Assembly (NCBI GenBank): GCA_964616425.1
Contig: CAZTQY010000004.1
Coordinates: 46,251-110,250, forward strand
Source: an uncultured Candidatus Saccharibacteria bacterium
GTDB lineage: Bacteria > Patescibacteriota > Minisyncoccia > Phycocordibacterales > DATDWN01
Direction: 5' to 3'
Length of the DNA stretch: 64,000 nucleotides
Positions 24,035 to 56,289 of the stretch are shown here, in pieces; position 1 is the stretch's first letter, and each line of letters starts with the position of its first letter. The notes under the pieces are model-generated. The model worked only from the letters and a program-made list of their open reading frames with translations. It had not been told where the DNA came from and did not search any database. A program made the translations under genes and the position numbers.

Positions 24035-24035
24035 G

Positions 24036-24066: not shown

Positions 24067-24088
24067 TGGTGAACTGTGTTGGGTGTGA

Positions 24089-29629: not shown

Positions 29630-29630
29630 A

Positions 29631-29927
29631 ATGAATAGTATTCTTTCAAAAGAAATAATAAAAGAATGGGACTTACAAGGTCTTCCTATTTCTGAACAAG
29701 AAGAGATGGTTGAGCGAATAGGTCTCATATTGTACCAAGCTATACTTGTAAAATCATTGGATATACTGTCTGACAAAGAACAGGATGAATTAGACTTATT
29801 GCTAGATAAAGATGAGACTACACCCCAAATTGTTATGGCTTTTTTGAACTCAAAAATACCAACTTTTGATAAAATGGTAAATGAGGAGAAGATCAACTTG
29901 AAGAGAGATTTGTTTATGCAAGTATAG
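29631..29927 (+). CDS. hypothetical protein (98 aa), translationally coupled to upstream 979-aa ORF
   Basis: Start 2 nt after upstream stop. Confidence 0.4.
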   Translation: MNSILSKEIIKEWDLQGLPISEQEEMVERIGLILYQAILVKSLDILSDKEQDELDLLLDKDETTPQIVMAFLNSKIPTFDKMVNEEKINLKRDLFMQV

Positions 29928-31346: not shown

Positions 31347-31371
31347 TCTTAAACTTTAATAAGTTTTCAAA

Positions 31372-31396
31372 AAGCCACCTTTGGGTGGTTTTTTGA
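31372..31396 (+). terminator. rho-independent terminator aaagccacctttgggtggttttttg
   Basis: Hairpin + T-run immediately after tuf; near-identical to 32131-32156. Confidence 0.65.
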
Positions 31397-31428
31397 TTTG
31401 ATAGATGGTAAGTTTGTATATGGGGGTC

Positions 31429-31656
31429 ATGATGGTAATTTGCACGGGGCACACTAAGTTGGAAGTCGGAAAGGTTTATAAGAGCCTCGCCGACGATTTG
31501 GGAATCTGGCACCATGGTCAGCCATTTCTCGTCGTGAGAGATGCAACAAGGTTGGAATTCATCCAGGAGTGTATCGAAGCAAGGATTCCAACTGGTAGGT
31601 ATTTGGAAATGATCAGCATACCAGGAGTTCTTTATTGTGAAATCACGTTAGATTGA
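31429..31656 (+). CDS. GC-rich island ORF (hypothetical ~75 aa)
   Basis: GGGGG SD then ATGATG; elevated GC; followed by GC hairpin ggccctcaactgagggcc. Confidence 0.3.
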   Translation: MMVICTGHTKLEVGKVYKSLADDLGIWHHGQPFLVVRDATRLEFIQECIEARIPTGRYLEMISIPGVLYCEITLD

Positions 31657-32127: not shown

Positions 32128-32130
32128 TCA

Positions 32131-32156
32131 AAAAACCACCTTCGGGTGGTTTTTTG
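32131..32156 (+). terminator. rho-independent terminator aaaaaccaccttcgggtggttttttg
   Basis: Hairpin + T-run; paralogous to terminator after tuf. Confidence 0.65.
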
Positions 32157-32191
32157 ATTAGATAAGTGATACCTTTTTGAGAGGAGGTTCC

Positions 32192-32362
32192 ATGGAGATG
32201 TCAGACGAGAAACCTGTAAGGCCTGTGCAAAGGCAATCAGAGCGTCCCTACAAGTGCATACTTTGTCGTGCCAGGTTCGCAACCTTTCTCGAGTTGCGAA
32301 ACCATCAAGACGGTCACGACCCGGAGGGGATTCACTTCTCCGAACTAGGGTTACCGAAATAG
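32192..32362 (+). CDS. GC-rich island ORF encoding small C2H2 zinc-finger-like protein
   Basis: YKCILCRARFATFLELRNHQDGH fits C-x2-C-x12-H-x3-H; GAGGAGG SD before ATG (MEMSDEK); followed by GC hairpin gcccgcactcgcactgagttgcgggc. Confidence 0.35.
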   Translation: MEMSDEKPVRPVQRQSERPYKCILCRARFATFLELRNHQDGHDPEGIHFSELGLPK

Positions 32363-32420
32363 CTGGCGACCCCTAGGCCCGCACTCGCACTGAGTTGCGG
32401 GCCCTCTTTTTAAATACCAC

Positions 32421-32449
32421 TTGAATAAAAAAACATTATCTGCTAGTAT
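32421..32449 (+). promoter_or_regulatory. promoter TTGAAT-17-TAGTAT re-driving rplC and downstream genes
   Basis: Paralog of 31688-31716 promoter (cacttgaaYaaaaaaNcattatctgNtagtat). Confidence 0.5.
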
Positions 32450-33867: not shown

Positions 33868-34149
33868 ATGAAGAAAGATTTAAACGCAGTTCTAATACGA
33901 CCACATATAACTGAAAAGGCTTCTATGTCAGCAGAATCTTCTGTTTATGTATTTGAAATCGCTCCAAAGGCAACTAAAGCTCAAGTAGAAAAAGCTTTCA
34001 CTGAGAAATACAAAATTGATCCAGTTAAAGTTTCAACTGTGACTATACCAGCTAAAAGAGTTTTTGTTAGAGGTAAAAAGGGTTTGAAGTCAGGATATAA
34101 GAAAGCTTATATTTACCTAAAGAAGGGTGAGAAGATTGAGATAATATAG
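33868..34149 (+). CDS. rplW: 50S ribosomal protein L23
   Basis: Conserved L23 sequence. Confidence 0.9.
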   Translation: MKKDLNAVLIRPHITEKASMSAESSVYVFEIAPKATKAQVEKAFTEKYKIDPVKVSTVTIPAKRVFVRGKKGLKSGYKKAYIYLKKGEKIEII

Positions 34150-34176
34150 TTCGACTAGCTCACTATAAATAAAAAA

Positions 34177-35019
34177 ATGAAACGATATAAACCAACATCA
34201 AAATCTCGAAGAGGAATGACAACAATCTCATTCGGAGATTACATAACAGCAACAGAACCAGTAAAGTCACTAACTCATGGTTTTAGACGACAAGTTGGAC
34301 GAAACCATCATGGTAAAGTTACAACTAGACATAAAGGAGGGGGTGTAAAAAGGTTGTTCCGAGAGATTGATTTTTCATATGACAAAATAAATGTTCCTTA
34401 TACTATTAAAACAGTAGAGTACGATCCAAACAGATCAGGATTTATTGGTATGGCTCAATACGAGGATGGAGCAAAGAGATACGTTTTGTTACCAAAGGGA
34501 ATAAAAGTTGGAGATAAGTTGGTAACTTCAGAAAATGCTGAACAAAAAGTTGGAAACAGACTACAGCTCAAAAACATCACTATCGGTACTTTTGTTTACA
34601 ATGTTGAAGTTAAACCACAAGGTGGAGCAAAGCTTGCAAGATCAGCAGGTAACTACATCGAAGTAATTGCAAAGGACGCAGGTTATGTTGATGTTAAGAT
34701 GCCATCTTCAGAAGTTCGAAAGATAAAAGATACAGCATGGGCTTCTATCGGAGATGTTTCAAACCCAGAAAACAGACTAGTTAACCTAGGAAAAGCTGGA
34801 CGATCAAGATGGTTAGGTATACGACCTACAGTTCGAGGAACAGCTCAAAACCCAGTTGACCACCCATACGGAGGAGGAGAAGGACGACAGGGAAGAGGCC
34901 GAAAGAGAGCAATCTCAGTCTACGGAAAGCCAACTGGAAAGGGACAAAAGTCACGAACTCCAAAGAAATATTCAAACAAATTCATTGTGTCACGCCGAAA
35001 AGTTGGAAAGAAGAAATAA
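34177..35019 (+). CDS. rplB: 50S ribosomal protein L2
   Basis: Conserved L2 sequence (GRNHHGKVTTRHKGGG, C-terminal basic tail). Confidence 0.95.
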   Translation: MKRYKPTSKSRRGMTTISFGDYITATEPVKSLTHGFRRQVGRNHHGKVTTRHKGGGVKRLFREIDFSYDKINVPYTIKTVEYDPNRSGFIGMAQYEDGAKRYVLLPKGIKVGDKLVTSENAEQKVGNRLQLKNITIGTFVYNVEVKPQGGAKLARSAGNYIEVIAKDAGYVDVKMPSSEVRKIKDTAWASIGDVSNPENRLVNLGKAGRSRWLGIRPTVRGTAQNPVDHPYGGGEGRQGRGRKRAISVYGKPTGKGQKSRTPKKYSNKFIVSRRKVGKKK

Positions 35020-35024
35020 TTCAA

Positions 35025-35055
35025 AACAAAACCGCCGAAAGGCGGTTTTGTTTTG
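35025..35055 (+). terminator. terminator aaaccgccgaaaggcggttttgtttt
   Basis: Hairpin + T-run after rplB, before GC-rich island. Confidence 0.6.
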
Positions 35056-35119
35056 ACTATTTGAAATATATAGGTAATCTTTGGTATAGAGGCGATTTCG
35101 CCACTAATTGGAGGGATTA

Positions 35120-35458
35120 ATGACCAAGGGACAGTTCCTGGGGCACTTTCGGGAGGCCGTCGAGAAGTTTCGTGATGGCGTTGCGGAGTACGTGGCTAAT
35201 GCCGATCATTCGACAGAAACTGTTGGCAAGCGAGTGGGGTTCTATAGTGCTCTGGCACTCGCTTCGGCCAGGGACGCCGAAATACCAATCAAGGATGCCG
35301 AGAACCCGGTATGCGAGGCGATCGTCAGGTTTCGTAACAGTGGACCTTGGCTCCTTACGTTTGATGAGCTGGTCGCCATCGAACAGGCCTGGGAGTACTA
35401 CGACGACTATCAGCGTGCCAAGGAGCTCTCTGGTCGTCGGCCGGATCAGATCGGATAG
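35120..35458 (+). CDS. GC-rich island ORF (hypothetical ~112 aa)
   Basis: Promoter-like TTGAAA-18-TATAGA, GGAGGG SD then ATG (MTKGQFLGHF); ~58% GC. Confidence 0.35.
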   Translation: MTKGQFLGHFREAVEKFRDGVAEYVANADHSTETVGKRVGFYSALALASARDAEIPIKDAENPVCEAIVRFRNSGPWLLTFDELVAIEQAWEYYDDYQRAKELSGRRPDQIG

Positions 35459-35643
35459 TGTGGCGGGCGAGGGGGCGCGGACATATTGGGGGCCCATGAA
35501 AAAATATGTTTACAATATTTTGTGTTTTTTATACTATGGACGCCACTGAAGTATTTACATTCTGTTTGAGTTTTAAGTAAGTCAGTACCACGAAAATGTG
35601 GTTTTCTTCTTGCCAATTGGCGGGGAATTAAAATAGACAAAAT

Positions 35644-35988
35644 ATGACACGATCATCAAAAAAAGGTCCATACGTTGACGAAAGACTCCTTAAGAAAATT
35701 GAGGGTAAAAAATCTAGTGAAACTGGGGTTATTAAAACTTGGTCACGAGCATGTGTAATCTCACCTGAAATGGTTGGATTTATTTTCGGTGTACACAACG
35801 GAAAGACTCATATCGAAGTTTCTGTAAACGAGGATATGGTTGGACACAGACTAGGTGAGTTTTCTCCTACGAAGAAATTCATAAAACACGGAGGAAAGAT
35901 GCAGAAAGAGCTAGAGCAAAAGAAGAAGGAGGGAGAAATCGCTTCGGCACAGGCAGCTAAGTCAACAGGTGATACCGCAAAGAAATAG
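35644..35988 (+). CDS. rpsS: 30S ribosomal protein S19 (with C-terminal K/E-rich extension)
   Basis: Conserved S19 core; upstream promoter TTTACA-17-TACTAT at ~35505-35533. Confidence 0.9.
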
Positions 35989-36019
35989 CTCGATAAACTC
36001 ACTATAAATAAAAACTATC

Positions 36020-36481
36020 ATGGCAACAGCAAAAGCAACATTATCAAACTTCCGACAAGCTCCTCGTAAAATGCGAATGGTGGCTAATACTGTACGAGGA
36101 AAGAAAGTTTCTGAAGCTCTAGTAAACTTAGACTTTGTTGCTAAGAAGGCTTCAGCTCCTATCAAAACTCTTATTGCATCTGCTCTTGCTAATGCAAAGG
36201 CTCTTGATATTCCTACAGAAAACTTAATAATAAAAACTATCAAAGTTGATAGTGGATCTATCATGTACCGAAGACGACCAGCAGCTCGAGGTTCAGCACA
36301 TCCTATCCGAAAGAGAACATCTGCGATTTTTGTTGAGCTAGGTGAGGCAGAGTCAAAGAAGAAGGTTAAGGTTCTAAAGGAGGCGGTATCTCTGCCGAAG
36401 GCTGTAAATAATGAGGCGAAAGCTATGACAGTAGAATCTAAGCCAAAGGCTAAAAAAGTAGCTAAGAAAACATCAAAATAA
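36020..36481 (+). CDS. rplV: 50S ribosomal protein L22
   Basis: Conserved L22 sequence. Confidence 0.9.
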   Translation: MATAKATLSNFRQAPRKMRMVANTVRGKKVSEALVNLDFVAKKASAPIKTLIASALANAKALDIPTENLIIKTIKVDSGSIMYRRRPAARGSAHPIRKRTSAIFVELGEAESKKKVKVLKEAVSLPKAVNNEAKAMTVESKPKAKKVAKKTSK

Positions 36482-36485
36482 TCCC

Positions 36486-37142
36486 ATGACACATACAGTA
36501 CACCCATATTCACATAGACTTGGAATCATAAGAGATTGGAAATCTCGATGGTTTGGAGTAAAAGGAAAATACAAAGAGTTCTTAAAGAGCGATGTGCTTT
36601 TGCGAGAATACCTAGAAAAGAAAATGAGAGGTATGTATGTTTCTAATATTGAGATGGAAAGAGGTGAAAAGGTTCTACGAATCATTATCGAAACATCTAG
36701 ACCTGGAGCTATCATCGGACGAAGTGGAGATGGTGCTACAAAACTTAAAAATGATATTATTTCATTTCTTGCAAAGAACAAACTATCTTCAGGAGGGGAG
36801 GTTAAGGTTGATATTAAAGAAGTAAAGTCTCCAGAATCAAATGCTACTATTGTTGCTCAGATGATTGCTGATGGTTTGGAAAAGAGACTTCCATTTAGAC
36901 GAGTTACAAAGCAGATGGTTGAAAAGGTCATGGCTAACAGAGATGTTTTGGGAGTAAAGATCGAACTATCTGGAAGACTTGCTGGAGCAACTATGGCAAG
37001 ACAGGAGAAGATAAAGAGAGGACGAATTCCTCTTCAGACTCTTCGAGCCGATGTTGATTTCTGTAAATATGAAGCTAGACTTCCATATGGAGGAATCGGA
37101 ATAAAGGTTTGGATATATAAGGGTGAGATTTTCAATAAATAA
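36486..37142 (+). CDS. rpsC: 30S ribosomal protein S3
   Basis: KH domain and S3 C-terminal domain. Confidence 0.9.
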   Translation: MTHTVHPYSHRLGIIRDWKSRWFGVKGKYKEFLKSDVLLREYLEKKMRGMYVSNIEMERGEKVLRIIIETSRPGAIIGRSGDGATKLKNDIISFLAKNKLSSGGEVKVDIKEVKSPESNATIVAQMIADGLEKRLPFRRVTKQMVEKVMANRDVLGVKIELSGRLAGATMARQEKIKRGRIPLQTLRADVDFCKYEARLPYGGIGIKVWIYKGEIFNK

Positions 37143-37153
37143 TAACTACCACC

Positions 37154-37576
37154 ATGTTGATACCAAAAAAAGTTAAATACAGAAAGTGGCATACATTCAG
37201 AAAGAACGCTAATAAGGTTGGGGTTTCTTCTCGTGGAACAACTGTTGCCTTTGGTTCACATGGTCTTAAGGCACTAGAAGGAGCACGTATAATGTCTAAC
37301 CAGCTTGAGGCTGCAAGAAAAGCTCTTTCAAGAGCTTCTGGAAAGACAGGAAAGGTTTGGATCAGAGTTTTCCCTGATATGCCTCTTACAAAGAAACCAG
37401 CAGAAGTAAAGCTTGGAAAAGGAAAAGGAGATTTGTTTGGTTATTGTGCTCCAGTAAAGCCAGGAAGAGTTATCTTTGAAGTTGATGGCGTAACTGACGC
37501 TGTAGCTAGAGAGGCTTTGAGAAAGGCTGGAACAAAACTTCCATTAAAGACAAAAATAGTATCAGCACATAATTAA
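37154..37576 (+). CDS. rplP: 50S ribosomal protein L16
   Basis: Conserved L16 sequence. Confidence 0.9.
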   Translation: MLIPKKVKYRKWHTFRKNANKVGVSSRGTTVAFGSHGLKALEGARIMSNQLEAARKALSRASGKTGKVWIRVFPDMPLTKKPAEVKLGKGKGDLFGYCAPVKPGRVIFEVDGVTDAVAREALRKAGTKLPLKTKIVSAHN

Positions 37577-37583
37577 AACGAAT

Positions 37584-37772
37584 ATGAAAGATTTCATTAA
37601 AAAAACTCCAAAAGAACTTATGACACTGCTAAAGGAAAAGCAGACAGCTTTGAGAGCATTTCGTTTTTCAGTTGCTGGTAGTAACACAAGAAATGTAAAG
37701 GAAGGAAAGTCATTAAAGAAAGATATCGCAAGAATAATGACAATTCTTAATAACTCTACAGAAGTTAAATAA
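37584..37772 (+). CDS. rpmC: 50S ribosomal protein L29
   Basis: Size, position and sequence consistent with L29. Confidence 0.85.
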   Translation: MKDFIKKTPKELMTLLKEKQTALRAFRFSVAGSNTRNVKEGKSLKKDIARIMTILNNSTEVK

Positions 37773-37777
37773 AATAT

Positions 37778-38035
37778 ATGGAAAAGACTATGAAAAAAAC
37801 AGAAGTAAAGAAAGCAAGAAAGCAACTAGTTGGAGTTGTGGTATCTGACAAAATGAAAGATACAGTTGTTGTCGAAGTTTCTAGATTTATAAAGCATCCA
37901 AAGTATAAGAAGTTTATTTCAATAGATAAGAGATTCAAAGCTGATGACAAAGGGAACACAAAAAAGGTGGGGGACAAAGTAACTATCGAGGAGTGTGCTC
38001 CAATCTCAAAGGACAAGAAATTCCGAGTAATATAA
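37778..38035 (+). CDS. rpsQ: 30S ribosomal protein S17
   Basis: Conserved S17 OB-fold sequence. Confidence 0.85.
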   Translation: MEKTMKKTEVKKARKQLVGVVVSDKMKDTVVVEVSRFIKHPKYKKFISIDKRFKADDKGNTKKVGDKVTIEECAPISKDKKFRVI

Positions 38036-38050
38036 ATAACATTAAAAGCC

Positions 38051-38428
38051 ATGATACAACCAAGATCAATAGTTAAAATAGCTGACAACACAGGAGCAAA
38101 GCTCGGAAGAATTTTCAAGGTGCTTGGAAGCTCAAAGAAAAGATATGCAAGTATCGGTGAATTGGTTGTACTTTCTGTACAGAAAGCAGAGCCTAGAAAG
38201 TCTACAAAGAAGAAGGATGTTGTTTATGGTATTGTAGTTAGACAAAAGGCACCTTTCCGACGAAAGGATGGAACATACCTAAGATTTGATGAAAACGCAG
38301 TTGTTATTGTTATGAAAGATGACAAGAAAAAGGAACCAGTTGCTGGACGTGTATTCGGGCCTATTCCACGAGAAATTGGTGAAGTTGGATACCAGAAGAT
38401 TATTTCTCTAGCTCCTGAAGTAGTTTAA
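38051..38428 (+). CDS. rplN: 50S ribosomal protein L14
   Basis: MIQPRSIVKIADNTGAK conserved L14 N-terminus. Confidence 0.9.
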   Translation: MIQPRSIVKIADNTGAKLGRIFKVLGSSKKRYASIGELVVLSVQKAEPRKSTKKKDVVYGIVVRQKAPFRRKDGTYLRFDENAVVIVMKDDKKKEPVAGRVFGPIPREIGEVGYQKIISLAPEVV

Positions 38429-38438
38429 TTTTAAATAT

Positions 38439-38657
38439 ATGAACGTAAAAAAAGACGACAAAGTAATAGTGTTAACAGGAAAAGACAAGGGAAAAACTGG
38501 TACAGTTTTGAAATCTATGCCGAAAGAAGGTAAGGTTGTAGTTTCTGGAGTGAATGTATTAAAGGTTCACCAGAAGCCACGAAAGTCTGGCGAAAAAGGC
38601 CAGATAGTAGACAAGACTATGCCTATCAATGCTTCAAATGTTAAGAAAGCAAAATAA
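38439..38657 (+). CDS. rplX: 50S ribosomal protein L24
   Basis: KOW motif VIVLTGKDKGKTG. Confidence 0.85.
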   Translation: MNVKKDDKVIVLTGKDKGKTGTVLKSMPKEGKVVVSGVNVLKVHQKPRKSGEKGQIVDKTMPINASNVKKAK

Positions 38658-38668
38658 TTAAAACGAAC

Positions 38669-39217
38669 ATGGAATCAACAAAAACAAAAGTAGCAACCGC
38701 ATTCGAAGCTCTAAAAGGGGAGTTCGGATACAAGAATAAGATGCAAGCACCAAAGATTCAGAAATTGGTTGTTTCTGCTGGCGTTGGTTCTATAAAAGAT
38801 AAAAAGAAAATTGAGTTAGTTGTAGATAGACTTTCAAAAATAACTGGACAGAAACCTGTAAAGAAAGGAGCAAAGATTTCTATTGCATCATTTAAAACAA
38901 GACAAGGTGATATAGTTGGAATGCAAGTAACTCTACGTGGCCAGCGAATGTACGACTTCCTTGATAAGCTTATAAACATCGCTATCCCTCGAACAAAAGA
39001 CTTCCGAGGAATCGGAACTACTGGAGTAGATGGAATGGGTAACTACACTCTTGGGATAAAAGAAAACACTATTTTCCCAGAATGTTCTGATGAAGAGTTG
39101 AAGGATGTGTTCGGGCTAGCTATCACAGTAGTTACAAACATAAAGAATCCAAAGGAAACAAGAGCTTTCCTTACTCACCTAGGGTTCCCATTTAAGAAAG
39201 AAGTGGCAAAGAAATAA
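38669..39217 (+). CDS. rplE: 50S ribosomal protein L5
   Basis: Conserved L5 sequence. Confidence 0.9.
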   Translation: MESTKTKVATAFEALKGEFGYKNKMQAPKIQKLVVSAGVGSIKDKKKIELVVDRLSKITGQKPVKKGAKISIASFKTRQGDIVGMQVTLRGQRMYDFLDKLINIAIPRTKDFRGIGTTGVDGMGNYTLGIKENTIFPECSDEELKDVFGLAITVVTNIKNPKETRAFLTHLGFPFKKEVAKK

Positions 39218-39223
39218 TACTAA

Positions 39224-39250
39224 GAAAAATCCCTCAACTGAGGGTTTTTT
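39224..39250 (+). terminator. terminator aaaaatccctcaactgagggttttttc (same CCCTCAACTGAGGG hairpin core as 31665-31680)
   Basis: Hairpin + T-run after rplE. Confidence 0.6.
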
Positions 39251-39360
39251 CTAAAATTGACTTTTGGAGCATTTGGCGTAGGCTATTCCCAGATGCGCAT
39301 ATCGCGCACATGTTTGCTTGTTGCTGTCAGGCGACAACACTGGAGGTTTCCGTGGGTATC

Positions 39361-39810
39361 ATGAGGATTGTCATCGGGTTCGTCGTTGGTGCTTTGTCTA
39401 TGCTGGTTGTTCAGAGTTTGTTGAGGATGTACAAGGAGTCCCAAAAGGAGAAGGCTCGTCTACGATGGAACCGAGAAATCCAAGAGCGTAGAAGTCAGGA
39501 GAAAGCTGTGGCCGACAAGATCAAGGACGCCCTTCTCCTATTCCTGCCGAAGTTCATGATTCGCGTGGGTTCTGAACGATCGTATGGATACCATGAAGTT
39601 CATGTTTGGATCGTGGGGGATCCACGCTCCTCTTACAGAGCACGTGTCACCTTCGGCGATACGGGTGAGGCAGAGATCAACGTTCTGGATATTCGTAGAG
39701 GTAAGTCAGTTTGCTATAGTGCTGAAAACCTCGATCAGGCAATTGACGCAATGAAAGCTAGGATCATTGCGGACCACGCTGAACTGTTCCCCGTTCCACA
39801 TATGGACTAG
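39361..39810 (+). CDS. GC-rich island ORF, membrane-anchored hypothetical protein (~149 aa)
   Basis: GGAGG SD, start MRIVIGFVVGALSMLVVQSLL (TM helix), ~57% GC; followed by GC hairpin gccggcatgccctataggtgtgccggc and promoter TTGACT-17-TAGTAT (~39875-39903). Confidence 0.35.
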   Translation: MRIVIGFVVGALSMLVVQSLLRMYKESQKEKARLRWNREIQERRSQEKAVADKIKDALLLFLPKFMIRVGSERSYGYHEVHVWIVGDPRSSYRARVTFGDTGEAEINVLDIRRGKSVCYSAENLDQAIDAMKARIIADHAELFPVPHMD

Positions 39811-39956
39811 GTTCCTGCCGGCATGCCCTATAGGTGTGCCGGCTGACTCGTTTCCGTTGACTTTTTTACGCCTTATTGCTAGTATAACCCCAGCTTGTCT
39901 GTTCTATAGATATCTATTCTATAGAAAAGATATAGGCTTTTTTAATTACATTTTCA

Positions 39957-40142
39957 ATGGCAAAAACATCAGTAAAAGCACGAGCAGCAAAGAAACCAAA
40001 GTTTAGTACAAAAGCTACTAACCGATGTTTTCGATGTTCTCGAGGAAGAGGTTTTATGCGAGACTTTGGTCTTTGCAGAATCTGCTTTAGAGAGTTAGCC
40101 AACGAAGGTAAGATCCCAGGAATCAAAAAATCATCCTGGTAA
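39957..40142 (+). CDS. rpsN: 30S ribosomal protein S14 type Z (zinc-binding)
   Basis: 61 aa with CxxC...CxxC ([10 protein letters not shown]...CRIC). Confidence 0.9.
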
Positions 40143-40209
40143 TAAAAGAAGTCTGGGAAAGTCTCTACTCACTCGAGGAAAGATACTATCTAGATATAAT
40201 AACAAAAAA

Positions 40210-40599
40210 ATGCAAGACCCAATCGCAGATATGATAGTTAGATTAAAGAACGCTTCTGATTCAAAGAAAGAATCAGTTGTATTTCCGCAGTCAAAATTAA
40301 AGCTCGCTATTCTTGATGTACTTATGAAAGAAGGTTTTGTTAAATCTGTTGGAAAGAAAGGAAAAAAGGTGGCAAAGTTTATCGAAGTTGGTCTTTTGTA
40401 TGATGCAGATGGTCCAAAAATATCTGGAGTTGAGAGAGTATCAAAGACTTCAAAACGAGTTTACAGTAAATCAAAAGAGATTCGAAAAGTTAAGAACGGT
40501 CTAGGTGCACTTATACTTTCAACTCCAAAAGGTATTATGACAGACAATGCTGCTCGAGAGGCACATGTTGGAGGAGAAGCTTTATTTAAAATCTGGTAG
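40210..40599 (+). CDS. rpsH: 30S ribosomal protein S8
   Basis: Conserved S8 sequence. Confidence 0.9.
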   Translation: MQDPIADMIVRLKNASDSKKESVVFPQSKLKLAILDVLMKEGFVKSVGKKGKKVAKFIEVGLLYDADGPKISGVERVSKTSKRVYSKSKEIRKVKNGLGALILSTPKGIMTDNAAREAHVGGEALFKIW

Positions 40600-40631
40600 T
40601 TCGACAGTCTCACTATAAATAATAAAAATAT

Positions 40632-41165
40632 ATGTCACGAATCGGAAAAAAAATAATAGCTATACCAACAGGAACAGAGGTAACTCTAGTTAACGGTCTT
40701 TTGACTGTAAAGGGTCCACAAGGAACACTTTCAAAACCTTTTAAAAGTGATATCGAAGTAACAATAGCAGAAGGAAATGTAACTCTAGTTCCAAAAAAAT
40801 CTACTCTAGAGAACCGAGCACTTTGGGGAACATATGCTTCTCATGTTATGAACATGATAGCTGGTGTAACAACTCCTTTTGTAAAAAAACTTATTCTAGA
40901 GGGTATCGGATATAAGTCAGAAGTAAAGGGAACAAATCTTGTTTTGGCCCTAGGCTTCTCACATCCAGTTAATATAGCAATACCTGCTATATTGAAAGTT
41001 ACTGCAGAGAAAAACATCATAACAGTTTCTGGTATTGATAAAGAAGTTGTCGGAGAATTTGCCGCAAATCTAAGATCTCTAAAGAAGCCAGAACCATACA
41101 AAGGTAAGGGAATGAGATATGATGGTGAGGTAATAAAGCGAAAGCAAGGTAAGAAGACAGCATAA
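40632..41165 (+). CDS. rplF: 50S ribosomal protein L6
   Basis: Conserved L6 sequence. Confidence 0.9.
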
Positions 41166-41181
41166 TCTCCAAAATAAAATT

Positions 41182-41532
41182 ATGAAAACATTAATATCAA
41201 AATCAGCAAGTAGAACACGAAGACACGCTCGAATAAGAGCAAAGATTTCTGGAACAGGAGAAGTTCCAAGACTATCTGTATTCAAATCAAACAAGCATAT
41301 CTCAGCTCAGCTTATCGATGATACAAGCGGCAAAACTCTGGCTTCAGTTCACTCAAGAGACATAAAAGGAAAGGGTATGATGGAGAAGTCTGTTAAAGTT
41401 GGAGAGGAAATGGCAAAGAAAGCACAATCTCTAAAGATTTCAAAAATAGTTTTTGATCGAGGTGGTTTTATTTACACAGGTGCAGTAAAAGCTTTGGCGG
41501 ACGGTGCTAGAGCTGGAGGACTACAGTTTTAA
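41182..41532 (+). CDS. rplR: 50S ribosomal protein L18
   Basis: Conserved L18 sequence. Confidence 0.9.
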
Positions 41533-41543
41533 TTTAAAAACAT

Positions 41544-42128
41544 ATGGATACAGAAGTAATAAAAACAGAAACAGTTGCCACAGAAACTCTACCAGTAGAG
41601 GCTACTCTTCCTGTACAGGATAACCGAGGTGGCGGAAGAGATTTCAAAAAGAACACTCGAAAGGGTGCTCCTCGACGAGAGGCTAGAGTAAAGCCTGAAT
41701 TCGACCAGAAACTTATTGGTATCAGACGAGTTACTCGTGTTGTTACTGGAGGACGAAGATTCTCATTTTCTGTTGGTGTTGTTATAGGAGATCGAAAGGG
41801 TAGAGTGGGTGTTGGAATGGGTAAAGCTGGTGATACACCTGTGGCTATCGATAAGGCAGTTAGAGATGCTCGAAAGAACATGATAAAGGTTAACCTAACA
41901 AAGCATATGTCAGTTCCTCATGATGCAAGAGCAAAGTTCTCTGGATCACAAGTTCTTATTATGAGAGCTCCAGGAAAAGGAGTTTTGGCGGGTTCATCTG
42001 TACGTGTTGTTTTGGAAATGGCGGGAATCAAGGAAGTTTCAGCTAAACTTTTCTCAAGATCAAAAAATAAGATCAACAACGCAAAGGCTGCAATCAAGGC
42101 TCTAAAAATGCTGAAAGCCGTAAAATAA
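41544..42128 (+). CDS. rpsE: 30S ribosomal protein S5 (with N-terminal extension)
   Basis: Conserved S5 dsRBD and C-terminal domain; followed 22 nt later by rplO with no rpmD. Confidence 0.9.
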   Translation: MDTEVIKTETVATETLPVEATLPVQDNRGGGRDFKKNTRKGAPRREARVKPEFDQKLIGIRRVTRVVTGGRRFSFSVGVVIGDRKGRVGVGMGKAGDTPVAIDKAVRDARKNMIKVNLTKHMSVPHDARAKFSGSQVLIMRAPGKGVLAGSSVRVVLEMAGIKEVSAKLFSRSKNKINNAKAAIKALKMLKAVK

Positions 42129-42150
42129 TTTTCTAATAACATAAACTGAT

Positions 42151-42594
42151 ATGCAAAGTCACGAACTAAAAAGAATAAATAAGAACAAGAAGCACCGACA
42201 AATGGGACGAGGGGGAACTCGTGGAAAAACTTCTGGACGAGGTACAAAAGGACAGAATGCAAGAGCTGGACACAAGAAGCGACCAGAAATTCGAGATTTC
42301 ATAAAGAGAATCCCAAAACTTCGAGGGCGAGGAAAGAACTTGAACACAAGTATTCAGTCTAAATTCTCAGTTGTTAACCTAGGTCTTTTGAATAAGGCTT
42401 GCAAGAACGGAGACACTATTTCTCCAGAAACATTGGTAAAGCACGGAGTTCTATCTATGAACAAAGGCACACTTCCAGTTGTTAAAATCTTAGCTAAGGG
42501 GGATTTTGATAAAAAACTATCTTTTGAGGGTTGCGTAGTGTCTGCTACTGCAAAGATTGCCATAGAAAAAGCAGGTGGTACTATAAAGCTATAA
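42151..42594 (+). CDS. rplO: 50S ribosomal protein L15
   Basis: Conserved L15 sequence (GRGGTRGKTSGRGTKGQ). Confidence 0.9.
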   Translation: MQSHELKRINKNKKHRQMGRGGTRGKTSGRGTKGQNARAGHKKRPEIRDFIKRIPKLRGRGKNLNTSIQSKFSVVNLGLLNKACKNGDTISPETLVKHGVLSMNKGTLPVVKILAKGDFDKKLSFEGCVVSATAKIAIEKAGGTIKL

Positions 42595-42607
42595 TATCTA
42601 ACTGGTT

Positions 42608-43879
42608 ATGAAAGAATTCTTTAATAAATTTTCACTAGTCTTCTCAGATAAAATTCTAAGAAGAAGAATATTCTTTACACTTTCAGCTCTTGCGTTGTTT
42701 AGAGTTCTTGCTTCTATACCTGTACCAGGTGTTGACCACGCAAGACTGGCACAGTTTTTTACTAGTAATGAATTTTTTGGTCTACTAAACATCTTTTCTG
42801 GAGGAGGTTTAGCACAACTTTCTATTGTTATGCTTGGTGTTGGTCCTTACATTACAGGTTCTATTATCATGCAGTTACTTACTATTATGTCTCCAAGACT
42901 AAAGGAGATGTACCAGGAAGAAGGTGAGGCTGGAAGAATGAAATTTGCACAATACAGTAGACTAGTTACAGTTCCATTGGCACTTTTACAATCATTTAGT
43001 TTTATTAAGCTTTTGGAGAACCAGCAAGTTATTGCTCATCTTTCACCGCTAGCTTTGGCTACAAACCTAATAGTTATATCAGCAGGTTCAGTATTACTAA
43101 TGTGGATCGGTGAACTTATATCAGAATACGGTATAGGAAATGGAATGAGTCTTATAATTTTTGCTGGTATCGTGGCATCTCTTCCGACTGAAATAAGTCA
43201 ACTAGCTTTCTCTTTTGATCCTTCACAGATTCCTGTTTATTTGGCGTTTGCAGTTGTAGCAGCTGTGGTTATTGTTGCTGTGGTTATTATCACAGAAGCT
43301 GAAAGGCCTATCCCAGTTACATATGCAAAGCAGGTTAGGGGTAATCGTGTATACGGTGGAACATCAACTTATCTTCCACTCCGAATCAACCAAGCAGGAG
43401 TTATTCCAATAATATTTGCATTGTCTATCCTTCTTTTCCCTCAAATGATATTGAGATTCTTGCAGAACTCAAGTCACGAAATAATACAAACAGTTTCTTC
43501 TGCTATTTTAAGAGTGTTGGCAAACAGCTGGTTCTACGCTATAGCATATTTCCTACTAGTATTTATATTTACTTACTTCTACACAGCAGTAACATTTGAT
43601 CCAGATCAGATTTCAACAAACCTCCAGAAAAATGGTGCGTTTATCCCAGGTGTTAGACCAGGAAAATCTACTTCAGAGCATATAGCAAAGATTCTAACTA
43701 GATTAACCTTAGTTGGAGCGTTGTTCCTAGGCTTTGTCGCAGTTCTTCCGCTTATCATGAGAGGTGTAACTGGTATTACAGCTGTCTCAGTCGGTGGTAC
43801 AGCACTCCTAATCGTTGTGTCAGTGGTAATCGACCTGATTAAACGAGTTGATGCTCAGGTTTCAATCCGAGAATATTAA
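42608..43879 (+). CDS. secY: preprotein translocase subunit SecY
   Basis: 10 TM helices and conserved SecY motifs. Confidence 0.9.
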   Translation: MKEFFNKFSLVFSDKILRRRIFFTLSALALFRVLASIPVPGVDHARLAQFFTSNEFFGLLNIFSGGGLAQLSIVMLGVGPYITGSIIMQLLTIMSPRLKEMYQEEGEAGRMKFAQYSRLVTVPLALLQSFSFIKLLENQQVIAHLSPLALATNLIVISAGSVLLMWIGELISEYGIGNGMSLIIFAGIVASLPTEISQLAFSFDPSQIPVYLAFAVVAAVVIVAVVIITEAERPIPVTYAKQVRGNRVYGGTSTYLPLRINQAGVIPIIFALSILLFPQMILRFLQNSSHEIIQTVSSAILRVLANSWFYAIAYFLLVFIFTYFYTAVTFDPDQISTNLQKNGAFIPGVRPGKSTSEHIAKILTRLTLVGALFLGFVAVLPLIMRGVTGITAVSVGGTALLIVVSVVIDLIKRVDAQVSIREY

Positions 43880-44004
43880 TTCTGGTTTTTTTGCCGAATT
43901 TCTTTGTTCTCGATTTTACTTTCCTTACAGGAACAGTACACCTTTCACATTTTGTTTACAAAATATTCAAGGTCTTGCGAAGTGATAAAATCACTTCTCA
44001 CTCC

Positions 44005-44085
44005 ACGCGCAGTACTAGATGTACAGCTTGGTCGAAAGTAAAATCTGCGAACTTCGAACTTCAACAAAAATCCGCAGAATTAGAA
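44005..44085 (+). repeat. copy C core of ~120-nt conserved intergenic repeat (5' portion of repeat at ~43883-43925)
   Basis: gcgcAGTACTAgatGTACAgcTTGGTCg...cTTCGAACTTCAACAAAAATCCgcaGaa aligns with copies A and B. Confidence 0.55.
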
Positions 44086-44119
44086 ACTTCACATTAGTAG
44101 TTGCGGAAAATCAAAAACA

Positions 44120-44160
44120 GTGTCAAAGAGTGAAAACTCTTTGACACTGTTTTTGTAGTT
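44120..44160 (+). terminator. strong terminator aaaaacagtgtcaaagagtgaaaactctttgacactgtttttg
   Basis: 13-bp stem with A/T runs. Confidence 0.65.
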
Positions 44161-44222
44161 GTTTAACATTCAGTCAGATCGCTCTTCACGCGAATTTCAT
44201 TTTAGTTCAGAAAGGAGTCCTC

Positions 44223-45218
44223 ATGGCGAAGCCGCTACCTTTCGTATCGCCTATGAGGGCTTTACGAAATATCCGAGCGATGGATACCCAACCTGCAAAG
44301 GCGGATACAAAGCTTGGGAAAAAGCTGCAAGCTCTTTTCCCAGACTATGACCCAAAGTTTGACCGTGAAAAGTCAGATGAGGTTCGACTGTACTACCTGC
44401 CACAGGTTGTACACCTATCAGATAGTGACCTACTTGCAGAGCTCGATTACTGGGCTCGAAAGTATGCCAGTCGGAACGACGTGGAATACTCCACCAAAAC
44501 TCCGATCGGTGACTTTCTCTCCCAGGCAAAGAGCCTGCAAAGGAAGATAAGACAGGGCCTGCATCCTGAGAAGCTGACCCCTTTGTACCGCAGAACTATC
44601 ATCAAGGGGTGCATTGCACTCAGATGGCAGGTAGTGCCGTACTTCCCGGGGCCTTCAATCTCAGGACAGCCTAGTGTCCGTGGCTGTATCAATGGTCACA
44701 AGCACTTTCTCTATGAGGACACTGACTGGCAGCTGGCCCAGAGGCTCGCTTCACTCGTAGGTTCCTGCGACATTGCTCTTCACGAGCTGTCGTTCATGGC
44801 ACGGAGTTGGCGGTCTGCATGGGACAAGGGTCCAGAGAAGTTCTCCTTCGAGTCAGATGGTCATCGGAAGTGGGCTGAGAAGCTCCATCACTCACTCCTC
44901 GAGAGAGAGGCGGGCATTTTCTACGATCAGGCACAAAGGTTCAGGGAGATGGTCGGGTTCCTGAAAAGGGTCCCACTCTGGCGGAGAAATCCAATCCAGG
45001 CGAACCTTTCGATTCTTCCAGATGCGGTCATTGTGACCAAAACGGAAGAGACCGATGCTGACCCAGAGAAGCCTGTTCGCCCGGCAGACCTCGGGGATTT
45101 ACTCTCAGTTCCAGATCTTGGTGACTGGGTAGGAGACTGCTTCCAGTATCGGCTCGACTTTCCACGTGTGGAGGTCGAATGGAACGGTGAAGCTGTTCAA
45201 AGTGAAATTAGTTTTTAA
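44223..45218 (+). CDS. GC-rich island ORF (hypothetical 331 aa)
   Basis: AGGAGT SD 6 nt before ATG; ~58% GC; followed by GC hairpin cgacggccacctagaggagtggtcgtcg and promoter TTTATC-17-TATAAT (45247-45275) for adk. Confidence 0.4.
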   Translation: MAKPLPFVSPMRALRNIRAMDTQPAKADTKLGKKLQALFPDYDPKFDREKSDEVRLYYLPQVVHLSDSDLLAELDYWARKYASRNDVEYSTKTPIGDFLSQAKSLQRKIRQGLHPEKLTPLYRRTIIKGCIALRWQVVPYFPGPSISGQPSVRGCINGHKHFLYEDTDWQLAQRLASLVGSCDIALHELSFMARSWRSAWDKGPEKFSFESDGHRKWAEKLHHSLLEREAGIFYDQAQRFREMVGFLKRVPLWRRNPIQANLSILPDAVIVTKTEETDADPEKPVRPADLGDLLSVPDLGDWVGDCFQYRLDFPRVEVEWNGEAVQSEISF

Positions 45219-45281
45219 CGACGGCCACCTAGAGGAGTGGTCGTCGTTTATCGTTTATATATATTTTGCTATAATCAACTC

Positions 45282-45872
45282 ATGACACCAAAAACTTTCA
45301 TATTCTTCGGTCCATCAGGAGCGGGAAAGGGGACACAGGCAAAAATACTCATTGAGCATTTAAAAAATATAGATCCAGAAAGAAAAACATTATACATTGA
45401 GACTGGGCAGAGATTTCGAGAATTTATTACTGAGGCTTCTTATACTGCAGAGAAAACAAAGGAAGTTATTGATAATGGAGGACTTCTTCCTGAGTTTTTA
45501 CCGATATGGATTTGGTCAGAATATTTTGTTAAACATGTTGGTGGTGATGAGCACATGATTCTTGACGGTCTTTCACGTAGGGCGCATGAGGCTCCAATAC
45601 TTAATTCAGCTATGAAATTTTATGGAAGAGAAAAACCATATGTAATCTCAATAGAAGTTTCAAGGGATTGGGCAAGGGAAAAATTGATGGGTAGAGAAAG
45701 AGGGGATGATAAAATTGAGCAGATAGAAAAGAGATTAGATTGGTTCGATGAGAATGTTTTGCAAGCCATGGAATATTTTAAAAATAATGAATTCTATAAT
45801 TTCGTATCGGTAAACGGGGAACAGTCTATAGTCGAGGTTAATAAAGAAATAATGTCTAAAATTGGAATATAA
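45282..45872 (+). CDS. adk: adenylate kinase
   Basis: FFGPSGAGKGTQA P-loop; -10 TATAAT ends 6 nt before ATG (leaderless). Confidence 0.85.
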   Translation: MTPKTFIFFGPSGAGKGTQAKILIEHLKNIDPERKTLYIETGQRFREFITEASYTAEKTKEVIDNGGLLPEFLPIWIWSEYFVKHVGGDEHMILDGLSRRAHEAPILNSAMKFYGREKPYVISIEVSRDWAREKLMGRERGDDKIEQIEKRLDWFDENVLQAMEYFKNNEFYNFVSVNGEQSIVEVNKEIMSKIGI

Positions 45873-46642: not shown

Positions 46643-47248
46643 ATGTCACATCCAAAGAAAGAAAGAACATTTGTAGCAGTAAAACCAGACGGAGTTCAAC
46701 GTGGCCTTATTGGAGAAGTCATTTCTCGCTTTGAAAGAGTTGGCTTGAAACTTGTAGCTATGAAAATGATAGTTGCTGATAAAGAACAAATCATAAAGCA
46801 CTACACTCTTGATCCAGAGTGGCGACGTGTAACTGGAGAAAAAACTATTAAAGGATATTTGGACAAAGGCCTCACTCCTCCAACAACAGATCCTTTAGAG
46901 GTTACAGAAAAACTTCTTAATAAACTTTGGCCTTTTATGACTAGTGGTCCTTTGGTAGCTATGGTTTGGGAAGGAGCGCATGCTCAAAAAATCGTTAAAA
47001 AAATCACAGGTGGAACTGAACCTCTTACTTCTGATGTCGGTACAATAAGAGGAGATTTTGTTTTGGATTCATACGCTATGTCTGATGGAGATGATAGATC
47101 AATAAGAAACGTCCTTCATTGTTCGGGATCAATCAAAGATGCAGAAGACGAAATAAAGCATTGGTTTAAACCTGAAGAAATAATAAACTACCGCCTGATA
47201 CATGAGCAGATACTGTACGACGTTAATCTAGACGGTATTTTGGAATAA
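46643..47248 (+). CDS. ndk: nucleoside diphosphate kinase (long form)
   Basis: RTFVAVKPDGVQRGLIGEVISRFERVGLKLVAMKM and catalytic His region; longer than typical 140 aa. Confidence 0.8.
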   Translation: MSHPKKERTFVAVKPDGVQRGLIGEVISRFERVGLKLVAMKMIVADKEQIIKHYTLDPEWRRVTGEKTIKGYLDKGLTPPTTDPLEVTEKLLNKLWPFMTSGPLVAMVWEGAHAQKIVKKITGGTEPLTSDVGTIRGDFVLDSYAMSDGDDRSIRNVLHCSGSIKDAEDEIKHWFKPEEIINYRLIHEQILYDVNLDGILE

Positions 47249-52066: not shown

Positions 52067-52075
52067 TTTGTATTG

Positions 52076-52461
52076 TGGAGAAGCCGAGATTTGAACTCGG
52101 GTGCAAATAAGTTTTGGCAATGTTTCTACACGACGTAGTTGGTTTTGATTTTCAAACACGATTCTGTAAGCCAACAAAATGAATCGTATTTTAGTTTTCT
52201 TTGTGTCAGAACAAACTCGAAACTAAGTTGCTCTCAAGTCCGATGATATATCAACTATTTCCTGTAACAGACTTCGAGGAATAGCCGCCACTTTGGTTAG
52301 TCTTAAAAAAGATTAAGCGAAAGCGAGAGCGAATCCATTCGCCATAAATGGTGAAGGGATTGCCTTTGCAAAGGTGTTTTTAGCATCTATGCTTTGAAGC
52401 AGTTTTAAAAGTTACTTCAGCTTTGTCGTGCACATTGTCAAAGGACTTACTTGTCTATGCC
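52076..52461 (-). ncRNA. ssrA: tmRNA (ssrA), tag peptide reading frame encodes ANGFALAFA-stop (minus strand, ~52343-52314)
   Basis: Minus strand 5' GGGGAUGACAGGCAUAGACAAG (cf. GGGGCUGAUUCUGGAUUCGAC) with G3:U wobble acceptor; 3' end ccgagTTCAAATctcggCTTCTCCA (T-arm + acceptor); internal ORF GCG AAT GGA TTC GCT CTC GCT TTC GCT TAA; adjacent smpB; no protein ORF in region. Confidence 0.7.
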
Positions 52462-52649
52462 TGTCATCCCCCTGAAATAGACTTCTTGTTTATATTATTT
52501 TCTTTTTCTCATAATTTTTTCTTGTAACAGAATAATTTTCTGCTGAAAATTTTCTTTCTACTCACCTTTTCACAGGTTCCGTAGATACAAGAAAAAATTA
52601 TGAGTCAACGAAAATAAAAAGAAATTTACTTTAGCCGAATGATAGGGAA

Positions 52650-53093: not shown

Positions 53094-53164
53094 AAGGGTA
53101 TTGTAACAGATTTATTGACATACTCTAGTAAAACTATACTATTTTCTCGGGAGGGGATGCTACG

Positions 53165-53539: not shown

Positions 53540-53634
53540 GTCTGTGTGGCCGGTTTCCATAAGGGGGTAGCACCAATGTGCACCCCCTTTTCGTTTCTTT
53601 TATTTTGTTTAATATCGTGTATACTGGGGCTACA

Positions 53635-56282: not shown

Positions 56283-56289
56283 CACGACG

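Follow-up and report, generated by a model that had tools for sequence, protein, structure and literature searches.

Phage morons, described by Hendrix and colleagues, are reportedly autonomous promoter-gene-terminator modules lodged between conserved phage genes. On the scale of bacterial chromosomes, the replacement-type flexible genomic islands and hot spots associated with Rodriguez-Valera and Lopez-Perez, and with Oliveira, Touchon and Rocha, are said to hold non-homologous content at a given locus that is exchanged through conserved flanks. Here we describe a set of GC-rich (rich in guanine and cytosine) single genes, nearly all led by a Shine-Dalgarno (SD) sequence, in a stretch of 64,000 nucleotides of contig CAZTQY010000004.1 (the window). 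These genes, which we call cassettes, stand at the breaks of the str-S10-spc ribosomal protein cluster and at several other places. The host is a Parcubacteria bacterium of the Candidate Phyla Radiation (CPR), as its best rplE matches are to Parcubacteria; ribosomal protein L30 is missing here, as expected for CPR (PMC9297842). We consider it probable that the cassettes are a distinct class of accessory genes, native to the pan-genome of a Parcubacteria clade and not recent imports. They are best described as moron-like accessory genes in operon-boundary hot spots, that is, as miniature replacement-type flexible genomic islands.

Like phage morons, the cassettes are single accessory genes, each with a predicted promoter and a predicted terminator; each fills the space between two genes that are neighbours in related genomes, and they differ in composition from the surrounding genes and are variably present. 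Unlike morons, they belong to a bacterial chromosome, where ribosomal and housekeeping genes surround them and phage genes are absent from the vicinity; they have no phage homologues, and they remain slot-faithful and compositionally distinct over long divergence. Their GC also exceeds that of the host, whereas morons, like most mobile DNA, tend to be richer in AT. Integron cassettes differ as well, since attC sites, intI/attI and promoterless arrays were not found in the 64-kb window. The likeness to replacement islands lies in the fixed core-gene loci, in unrelated alternative contents in near-identical strains, in old allelic lineages common to several species, and in a raised flank divergence that decays with distance, as seen between the window's strain (W) and the strain L084. 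Replacement islands are, however, multi-gene clusters, whereas each cassette is a single gene of 56-331 aa; there are many slots per 64 kb, some of them inside the ribosomal protein cluster, and the genes in these slots make up a class distinguished by composition and initiation signal.

The compositional class is sharply bounded. The window has a GC content of 38.1%, and 100-bp intervals with at least 50% GC cluster at 24017-24373, 32172-32435, 35072-35532, 39255-39910 and 44202-45250, and further at 53123-53609, 59180-59591, 63727 to the end, 15896-16295 and 4330-4668, each a discrete stretch of 250-1050 bp. Frames were settled from the GC of the codon positions, the placement of the SD and conservation among orthologues, after which every GC-rich stretch in or near the ribosomal cluster held one gene. 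GC content at third codon positions (GC3) is 0.583 +/- 0.051 in the cassette genes (n = 10, a set that excludes a candidate at 63806-63968; range 0.51-0.66) and 0.278 +/- 0.042 in the native genes (n = 56; range 0.20-0.39). The two ranges do not overlap (Mann-Whitney p = 3e-7), so that the GC-rich gene islands proposed in the first-pass annotation are real, although their coding GC is 46-57% and not the 55-60% given there. The cassette open reading frames (ORFs) show the pattern GC1 > GC2 < GC3 with periodicity in a single frame, a codon choice shifted toward C- and G-ending codons, more arginine, histidine, tryptophan and cysteine, and less lysine, isoleucine and asparagine. An alternative genetic code was rejected, since the native genes are intact under table 11.

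Start signals divide the genes along the same line. A GGAGG-type SD lies 4-10 nt 5' of the start in 9/10 cassettes vs 2/56 native genes (Fisher p = 1.4e-8); the first-pass statement that native genes are mostly leaderless or SD-less therefore stands, and the statement that all islands carry a GGAGG SD stands for all but the 31405 gene, which has none. Around native starts the sequence is 49% A and hardly folds at all, with a predicted energy (dG, -25..+25) of -2.0 kcal/mol, whereas cassette start regions are G-rich and structured, at a predicted -8.6 kcal/mol (p = 5e-7; this comparison includes the start of the 63806-63968 candidate). Several native genes appear leaderless, for example adk, in which a TATAAT box is followed by 6 nt and the ATG. 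In most of 80 related loci, close to 0% of the ribosomal protein genes have an SD (0-22% per locus), and this scarcity holds at any host GC (GC3 0.16-0.80). Host genes would thus be initiated in an SD-independent or leaderless manner, and the structured, GC-rich starts of the cassettes would depend on the SD.

The nearest parallel for such a division is found in the Bacteroidetes, which have A-rich unstructured leaders, retain the anti-SD and keep an SD in few genes. The two lineages are alike in placing a small strong-SD minority beside SD-independent, A-rich, unstructured starts. In the Parcubacteria described here, unlike the Bacteroidetes, the few SD-led genes are GC-rich accessory genes, restricted to the clade and without known relatives, and not a ribosomal autoregulatory gene. 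The SD is generally absent from Bacteroidetes (PMC3155529), and, in a further difference from that anti-SD-retaining group, half of the surveyed Parcubacteria genomes are reported to lack an anti-SD (PMC9297842).

The places that cassettes occupy recur across the clade. A census of 170 related loci, in which gaps of > 200 bp between consecutive ribosomal-cluster genes were counted, found such gaps at the L2/S19 junction in 69/87 loci, at L5/S14 in 51/88, at SecY/Adk in 32/59, at S10/L3 in 28/87, at EF-Tu/S10 in 16/77, at EF-G/EF-Tu in 24/26, at Map/NDK in 12/43 and at S7/EF-G in 7/14; each of the other 18 junctions had them in 0-4 loci. Empty sites consisting of a terminator and a promoter only are present at L2/S19 in L008, at L5/S14 in L005 and L008, and at SecY/Adk in L013. 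In the L2/S19 slot of L008 the L2 terminator is followed directly by the S19 promoter, and in L005 nothing stands between the terminator and the same S14 promoter as in the window. Because empty slots reduce to a terminator and a promoter, we read the recurrent gap junctions as operon boundaries of this clade that tolerate insertions. The str-S10-spc cluster would accordingly be split into the units S10, L3-L2, S19-L5, S14-SecY and adk-map-ndk, and the breaks between them would serve as permissive slots.

A cassette follows an upstream host terminator and consists of promoter-like hexamers, an SD, a single ORF and a hairpin, after which comes the promoter of the next host gene; the earlier picture of discrete insulated cassettes is in this respect borne out. 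Each would be an autonomous monocistronic module in which a putative sigma-70-type promoter and a strong SD lead into a GC-rich ORF, and a hairpin terminator closes the unit. In the SecY/Adk cassette, the border hexamers and the T-run hairpins are conserved among orthologues. Slot content varies between close relatives, and some families are found in different slots in different genomes. Cassettes are about as dense outside the ribosomal cluster as inside it, and their neighbours are ribosomal proteins, SecY, Adk, FtsH, RecG and similar. What had been taken for an atypical invasion of the most conserved operon is a feature of the clade as a whole, seen at a few junctions between operons.

The 331-aa gene of the SecY/Adk slot (44223-45218), one of a family specific to Parcubacteria, is the cassette whose history can be followed furthest. 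Its homologues at 77% (L001/L007) and 58% (L002) identity lie in the secY-adk interval, and a profile search of 1.84e9 representatives returned 23 members of the family. Seven members, P0002, P0003, P0006, P0011, P0013, P0016 and P0024, were located and range from 77% down to 27% identity. SecY lies directly upstream of the homologue in five loci (L002, L086, L087, L088/L089 and L171), with adk downstream in three, and in L172 the ORF upstream is an 80% SecY match; the L001 contig shows the adk side only, and that of P0022 (L090) is too short to judge. The hairpin and promoter-like segment at 44112-44169 is conserved in W, L007, L002 and L001. In each case GC3 is higher in the family (0.48-0.69) than in the flanking genes (0.19-0.53), and in L171 the cassette reaches 0.69 in a host of about 0.5. 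The SD is kept in 8/9 members examined, down to 27% identity, and such conservation of GGAGG implies that the ribosome of the lineage probably still has a usable anti-SD.

The alignment of the 23 sequences has clear conserved motifs, and an AlphaFold2 (AF2) model built from it has a predicted local distance difference test score (pLDDT) of 74 overall, with two helical regions above 90; with only 3 sequences the pLDDT was 47. The window's exact 331-aa sequence is not on record in an exact-sequence look-up. A second family, that of the 35108 gene (35120-35458), has an orthologue in the L2/S19 slot of L004 (58% identity, dN/dS, the ratio of nonsynonymous to synonymous substitution rates, of 0.24) and a relative directly after L2 in L170, with 27% identity and the same GGAGGG SD. 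Orthologue comparisons for the 44223 and 35108 genes give dN/dS 0.11-0.24 at dS 1.2-2.7, and host genes between the same genomes give dS 0.5-2.8, values above 1 being imprecise. Between L086 and the window, SecY is 91%, Adk 93% and the cassette 44% identical; between L002 and the window, SecY is 93% and the cassette 58% identical. Taken together, these alignments show that the predicted cassette proteins are under purifying selection, that the two traceable families keep their slot over long divergence, and that cassettes evolve, on these identities, much faster than the flanking genes and decoupled from host divergence.

Turnover of a slot is seen directly between W and L084, a conspecific strain whose flanks are 98-99% identical to those of W. 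In L084, W 44155-45255 with its 331-aa gene is replaced by an unrelated SD-led gene of 238 aa (GC 52%, GC3 0.54), the breakpoints being at the 44112-44169 hairpin/promoter segment on the left and at about 45256 on the right. The comparison with sister genomes that had been recommended thus shows differing slot contents and, at SecY/Adk, a swap within a species. Between 39.3 and 41.7 kb, which spans the whole 39310 cassette, there are zero differences; single-nucleotide polymorphisms per 300 bp rise to 24 at 43.8 kb, number 3-12 to the right of the slot and fall to 0 after 46.7 kb. Divergence thus returns to zero about 1.5 kb right of the slot, the raised tract is about 5 kb long, and dS is 0.16 for secY vs 0 for S8 and L6. 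Judged from this gradient, the tract is the footprint of homologous recombination through conserved flanks. A metagenome scan with L2 added 80 more relatives and no further conspecific strain.

The 238-aa family (family B) also occupies the SecY/Adk slot of L008 (42%) and L024 (38%), whereas the 331-aa family (family A) is found in W, L001, L002, L007, L086-L089, L171 and L172. Because family B is shared with L008 and L024 and the swap has left a recombination tract, two deep, unrelated alleles appear to segregate at this slot and to be moved by recombination in the flanks. More generally, cassette alleles would be turned over by homologous recombination through conserved flanks, and donor DNA may enter by natural transformation, for which comEC and the type IV pilus genes pilB/pilC in the window speak. 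By analogy, we infer that a recombination hot spot with long-standing alternative alleles may resemble a conflict locus concerned with defence or host interaction. Next to the same slot, adk (45282-45872) and ndk (46643-47248) match their counterparts in relatives at either 85-95% or 42-54% identity, with the L008 NDK intermediate at 72%, while SecY and Map are at 70-93% in the same genomes; core genes beside the slot also appear to have been replaced by recombination.

The remaining cassettes have fewer relatives. The protein of the 35120-35458 gene is identical in a second assembly, L085 (97% nucleotide identity), has no relatives detected outside the clade and no Pfam, PHROG or PADLOC match. 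The 39352-39810 gene, whose product has a hydrophobic helix at its N terminus, is 100% identical in L084, and only the protein itself was found among 5.8e9 proteins; the L5/S14 slot of relatives holds other families or nothing. A relative of the 31405 gene with 41% identity lies in the S10/L3 slot of L013. The 35108 and 39310 junctions recur at 97-100% in L085 and L084, which answers the concern about assembly artefacts, and with these junctions present again in assemblies made independently, a chimeric assembly is rejected. The segments 31367-31415 and 32128-32176 form a 49-nt direct repeat (84% identity); it comprises the terminators after tuf and rpsJ with about 20 nt downstream and precedes both small cassettes flanking rpsJ, which suggests that a terminator and cassette-promoter segment was duplicated locally.

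Searches for a source outside the clade were negative. In 5.8e9 proteins (word-indexed) there was no donor lineage, only the query or genus-level relatives, and none was found among the 1.84e9 representatives, where every profile match located sits in the same Parcubacteria slot. Three cassettes compared with IMG/VR had no relatives there, and the cassettes had none in PHROGs or BFVD. Pfam, PHROGs and PADLOC revealed no integrase, transposase or endonuclease domain in the cassettes and no integrase in the window; no GIY-YIG, HNH or LAGLIDADG-type nuclease domain is present in any cassette, and the 56478-56930 product gave a weak PADLOC 'HEase' match (E = 9e-5, 20 bits). A repeat search around the cassettes found no shared terminal direct or inverted repeats, attC-like sites or target duplications. 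Their 3' hairpins are unrelated in sequence, and the cassettes are dispersed, each with its own promoter-like site. A PDB sequence profile search with a cassette protein found nothing.

The GC excess itself calls for explanation. Five cassette families have GC3 values 0.07-0.31 above those of their own hosts, whereas the GC3 of ordinary gene families that fill those slots in other subclades stays close to that of the host (for example 0.34/0.31 and 0.66/0.69). Because the excess (about +0.2 to +0.3) persists past synonymous saturation and ordinary slot genes track the host, it would have to be actively maintained. Selection on the mRNA or on the mode of translation is in our view the most likely cause, with continual exchange and GC-biased gene conversion as alternatives; GC borders that coincide sharply with the transcription unit, and the raised cassette GC3 in the mid-GC host L171, favour selection over a fixed pool composition or regional conversion. 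We also raise, as possible but doubtful, the existence of two translation regimes in one cell: an SD-less core, and a swappable regulon of GC-rich, structured and strictly SD-dependent genes that is kept by selection and switched on only with an anti-SD or in another cellular context. If so, the persistent GC excess would be an adaptive mRNA feature and not a foreign trace.

The first-pass annotation had favoured repeated acquisition from a GC-rich donor or a mobile-cassette mechanism, and had held that homologues of equally high GC in the same positions across the lineage would mark ancient native genes. Transferred genes reportedly decay toward host composition in the amelioration model of Lawrence and Ochman, and recent repeated transfer from a GC-rich, SD-using donor would leave both composition and SD as un-ameliorated donor traits. 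The cassettes resemble such genes in that their GC is atypical at all three codon positions, as are their codon and amino-acid usage and their SD; they are patchily distributed among close relatives, and several have no relatives at all. Unlike un-ameliorated genes, however, they keep their composition at saturated dS, in cassettes and flanking genes alike, and the same GC excess and SD are reproduced in same-slot orthologues from 77% to 27% identity, while ordinary genes occupying these slots have come to match the GC of their hosts. Same-slot GC-enriched homologues exist for the 44223 gene (L001, L002, L007, L086, L087, L088/L089, L171 and L172) and for the 35108 gene (L004, 58% identity), and the protein searches yielded remote matches in the same Parcubacteria slot but no donor. 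We consider recent transfer quite unlikely, and for 44223 and 35108 it is already largely refuted. Site-specific mobile elements, whether integron cassettes, transposons or miniature inverted-repeat transposable elements, homing-endonuclease genes or prophage remnants (morons), would account for the moron-like promoter-gene-terminator layout, for the few families found in different slots of different genomes, for the 39257 cassette promoter that repeats the -35 of the S14 promoter, and for the 49-nt repeat before both cassettes flanking S10. The absence of recombinase and endonuclease domains, of shared terminal repeats and attC-like sites, and of viral relatives (IMG/VR, PHROGs, BFVD) counts against them, as do swap breakpoints that lie in a graded homologous tract and not at a fixed site; the mobile-cassette proposal, for which neither an integrase, an attachment site, a terminal repeat nor a phage relative was found, is very unlikely.

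A pool of genes shared among Parcubacteria with GC3 of 0.2-0.8 might instead settle at an intermediate GC, or GC-biased gene conversion might raise it, and no selection would then be needed. SD-led slot ORFs indeed average a GC3 of about 0.5-0.6 across hosts of 0.24-0.78 (regression slope 0.29), a slope that noisy ORF calling in GC-rich loci would flatten; the 35108 relative in L170 matches a host that is itself GC-rich and is not anomalous there; and the strain-level swap with its recombination tract, the decoupling of cassette from host divergence and the two divergence classes of adk and ndk by the slot all fit exchange. The L171 cassette, at 0.69 in a host of about 0.5, is nevertheless offset upward and does not sit at a fixed intermediate, the GC borders are sharp at the transcription unit with no rise in the neighbours evident by inspection, and genomes that differ widely in GC are unlikely to recombine homologously. 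We judge this explanation unlikely. GC-rich spots in AT-rich genomes are often structured RNAs, and the islands could then be non-coding RNAs with accidental ORFs: high GC removes stop codons and yields overlapping ORFs on both strands, and the minus-strand stretch at 4362-4650 lacks a credible ORF and folds with a z-score of -5.1. Against this stand codon periodicity in one frame only, the dN/dS values, an SD 4-10 nt before the starts, the lack of Rfam matches, and a protein family with conserved motifs and a confidently predicted fold. Such a reading deserves almost no credence and is already refuted for 44223 and 35108.

Several observations weigh against treating the cassettes as a native, slot-faithful class with its own expression signals. 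The evidence for slot fidelity is good for one family (44223) and thin for a second (35108); the 39310, 32177, 24089, 53165 and 59205 cassettes have no detectable relatives, and the 31405 family is GC-poor in two relatives, where it occupies a different slot. Some slot genes in relatives (L005, L018) are not GC-rich. Promoters and terminators were called from consensus matches alone, and a region-wide promoter scan was not enriched (37 sites vs 29.6 expected from shuffles). The imprecision of dS above 1 counts on the same side, as does the search of every cassette protein with Pfam, PHROGs and PADLOC, which yielded only the TSCPD domain of 15986-16366 and weak zinc-finger and helix-turn-helix (HTH) signals. 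An anti-SD motif is present in only 48% of the Parcubacteria surveyed (PMC9297842), and 16S rRNA is absent from the window and from 86 related loci; if the lineage is among the Parcubacteria without the motif, the SD reading fails.

The features are collected in the table, in which several first-pass assignments are revised. The gene placed at 24069-24410 is on the minus strand at 24089-24331, and that at 15986-16366 does have a TSCPD domain (Pfam 3.8e-10) but on the minus strand. Start positions move to 35120 (ATG), 39352 (GTG), 32192 and about 31420. The 'HTH' label of 53165 and the 'DUF2934-like' label of 59205 were not reproduced by Pfam, and the product of 32192-32362 gave a weak C2H2 zinc-finger signal. 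The list of islands was incomplete, and two members are added, 56478-56930 on the minus strand and the candidate at 63806-63968 on the plus strand. The stretch at 4367-4638 appears to be non-coding, as had been proposed, but lies between nusA and pilB and not in the ribosomal cluster.

Table. Cassette genes and their border elements in the window, in order of position
Feature	Position	Strand	Details
TSCPD-domain gene, recJ/rnhA interval	15986-16366	-	SD-led, GC-rich, GC3 0.55; outside ribosomal cluster
S7/EF-G interval cassette gene	24089-24331	-	80 aa, GC3 0.63; weak SD GGGGTGA
EF-Tu/S10 cassette gene	31420-31656	+	~78 aa, GC3 0.52; no clear SD; start 31405 or 31420
S10/L3 cassette gene	32192-32362	+	56 aa, GC3 0.58; SD GGAGG 32183-32187; terminator 32384-32401
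rplB (L2) intrinsic terminator, left border of L2/S19 slot	35021-35056	+	hairpin; kept in empty L008 slot
L2/S19 cassette promoter-like hexamers	35053-35090	+	consensus match
L2/S19 cassette gene	35120-35458	+	112 aa, ATG, GC 0.57, GC3 0.64; SD GGAGG 35110-35114
rpsS (S19) promoter-like site, right border	35509-35537	+	TTTACA, 17 nt, TACTAT; kept in empty L008 and L013 sites
L5 terminator	39231-39244	+	precedes L5/S14 cassette promoter-like site
L5/S14 cassette promoter-like site	39257-39284	+	TTGACT, 16 nt, TAGGCT; -35 repeats that of S14 promoter
L5/S14 cassette gene	39352-39810	+	152 aa, GTG, GC 0.50, GC3 0.55; SD GGAGG 39342-39346
L5/S14 cassette 3' hairpin	39818-39844	+	followed by rpsN promoter
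rpsN (S14) promoter-like site	39857-39885	+	TTGACT, 17 nt, TAGTAT
Non-coding stretch after secY	43880-44111	+	one copy of ~75-nt element (~43990-44075); not part of cassette
Hairpin 3' of secY	44112-44155	+	perfect 20-bp stem, T-run; left breakpoint of strain swap
SecY/Adk cassette promoter-like site	44141-44169	+	TTGACA, 17 nt, TAACAT; overlaps 44112-44155 hairpin
SecY/Adk cassette gene	44223-45218	+	331 aa, GC 0.52, GC3 0.56; SD AGGAG 44213-44217
SecY/Adk cassette terminator	45217-45248	+	hairpin
adk -10 box TATAAT	45270-45275	+	6 nt before leaderless ATG at 45282
Gene 5' of ftsH	53165-53539	+	124 aa, SD-led, GC-rich, GC3 0.63; own terminator
Intermediate-GC gene	56478-56930	-	150 aa, SD GGAGG, GC3 0.51; weak HTH signal
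Gene in recG/malic-enzyme interval	59205-59480	+	91 aa, SD-led, GC-rich, GC3 0.66
Candidate small ORF, GC-rich window end	63806-63968	+	~53 aa, GTG, SD GGAGG; uncounted candidate read from sequence

The housekeeping genes of the window include nusA, pilB/pilC, pgk, recJ, rnhA, comEC, ftsH, recG and infC, together with a tmRNA and a tRNA-Ile(UAU). Other additional genes in the cluster are of ordinary composition. Between EF-G and EF-Tu, 26690-29927 encodes an AT-rich 979-aa protein without a Pfam domain and a 98-aa protein; relatives keep the family of the latter in their EF-G/EF-Tu gap, with a GC3 that follows that of the host, and both genes are ordinary residents, unlike the GC-rich cassettes. 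From rpsG to the minus-strand cassette (23191-24034) there are three AT-rich small genes without an SD, one with DUF2335, so that not all extra genes of the cluster belong to the GC-rich class.

Several RNA elements and motifs were noted besides. Rfam at the gathering threshold found only the tmRNA and one tRNA in the window. The 4362-4650 stretch folds on the minus strand to -122 kcal/mol vs -92.8 +/- 5.7 for shuffles and ends in a strong minus-strand terminator; it is a candidate for a novel structured RNA of about 280 nt. A hairpin element of about 75 nt is repeated at 23040-23126, 11750-11824 and 43990-44075, just after the stop codons of the operon-final genes S7, SecY and the gene at 10247-11710. 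Conserved in this element are a hairpin core, CGCGCAGTACTAAATGTACAGCTTGGTC, and a tail, CTTGAACTCGAACAAAAATCC, and its outer stem covaries, with 7/14 pairs compensatory; it occurs at several different junctions in L007, L009, L010, L014, L022, L029 and L034 and has no Rfam match. In the same non-coding stretch after secY, 43922-43998 is a 77-nt insertion relative to L007, with related pieces in L018, L021, L023 and L029, and may be a second short repeated element. Rfam in E-value mode gave chance-level matches only for 4200-4760 and 43860-44230.

The tRNA-Ile at 56209-56283 (+) carries the anticodon UAU, which is rare in bacteria, and fits the codon usage, as ATA makes up 43% of native isoleucine codons vs 12% in cassettes. 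An intergenic motif, TAGTTCGA..CTCACTATAAATAAAAA, stands directly before rplB, rplV and rplF (34147-34177, 35986-36016 and 40597-40627), its TATAAAT lying 7, 10 and 5 nt before the respective ATG; because of this spacing, the copies may be internal promoters for leaderless mRNAs or a translation-coupling signal. The tmRNA (52073-52471, minus strand; Rfam 98.6 bits) has an unusually long predicted tag peptide, AKNTFAKAIPSPFMANGFALAFA.

In summary, a GC excess maintained indefinitely in AT-rich, reduced genomes and, as the start sites suggest, SD-dependent initiation in a clade with SD-less core genes are both unusual, and neither is described as far as a literature search of partial coverage shows; within that coverage, cassettes of this GC-rich, SD-led kind have likewise not been reported from the ribosomal clusters of CPR bacteria. 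Recent transfer is commonly called from atypical composition, which here marks old residents that are shared both vertically and laterally. A GC3 that stays 0.2-0.3 above the host past synonymous saturation contradicts simple amelioration and would mislead island predictors on CPR genomes. In a large CPR clade the 'universally conserved' ribosomal cluster is divided among several transcription units, and the junctions between these are hot spots at which accessory genes recombine. The split between an SD-less core and SD-led accessory genes makes the use of the anti-SD by Parcubacteria ribosomes directly testable, and the clade-restricted, fast-evolving cassette proteins are candidates for the host-interaction or conflict biology of these uncultured symbionts.

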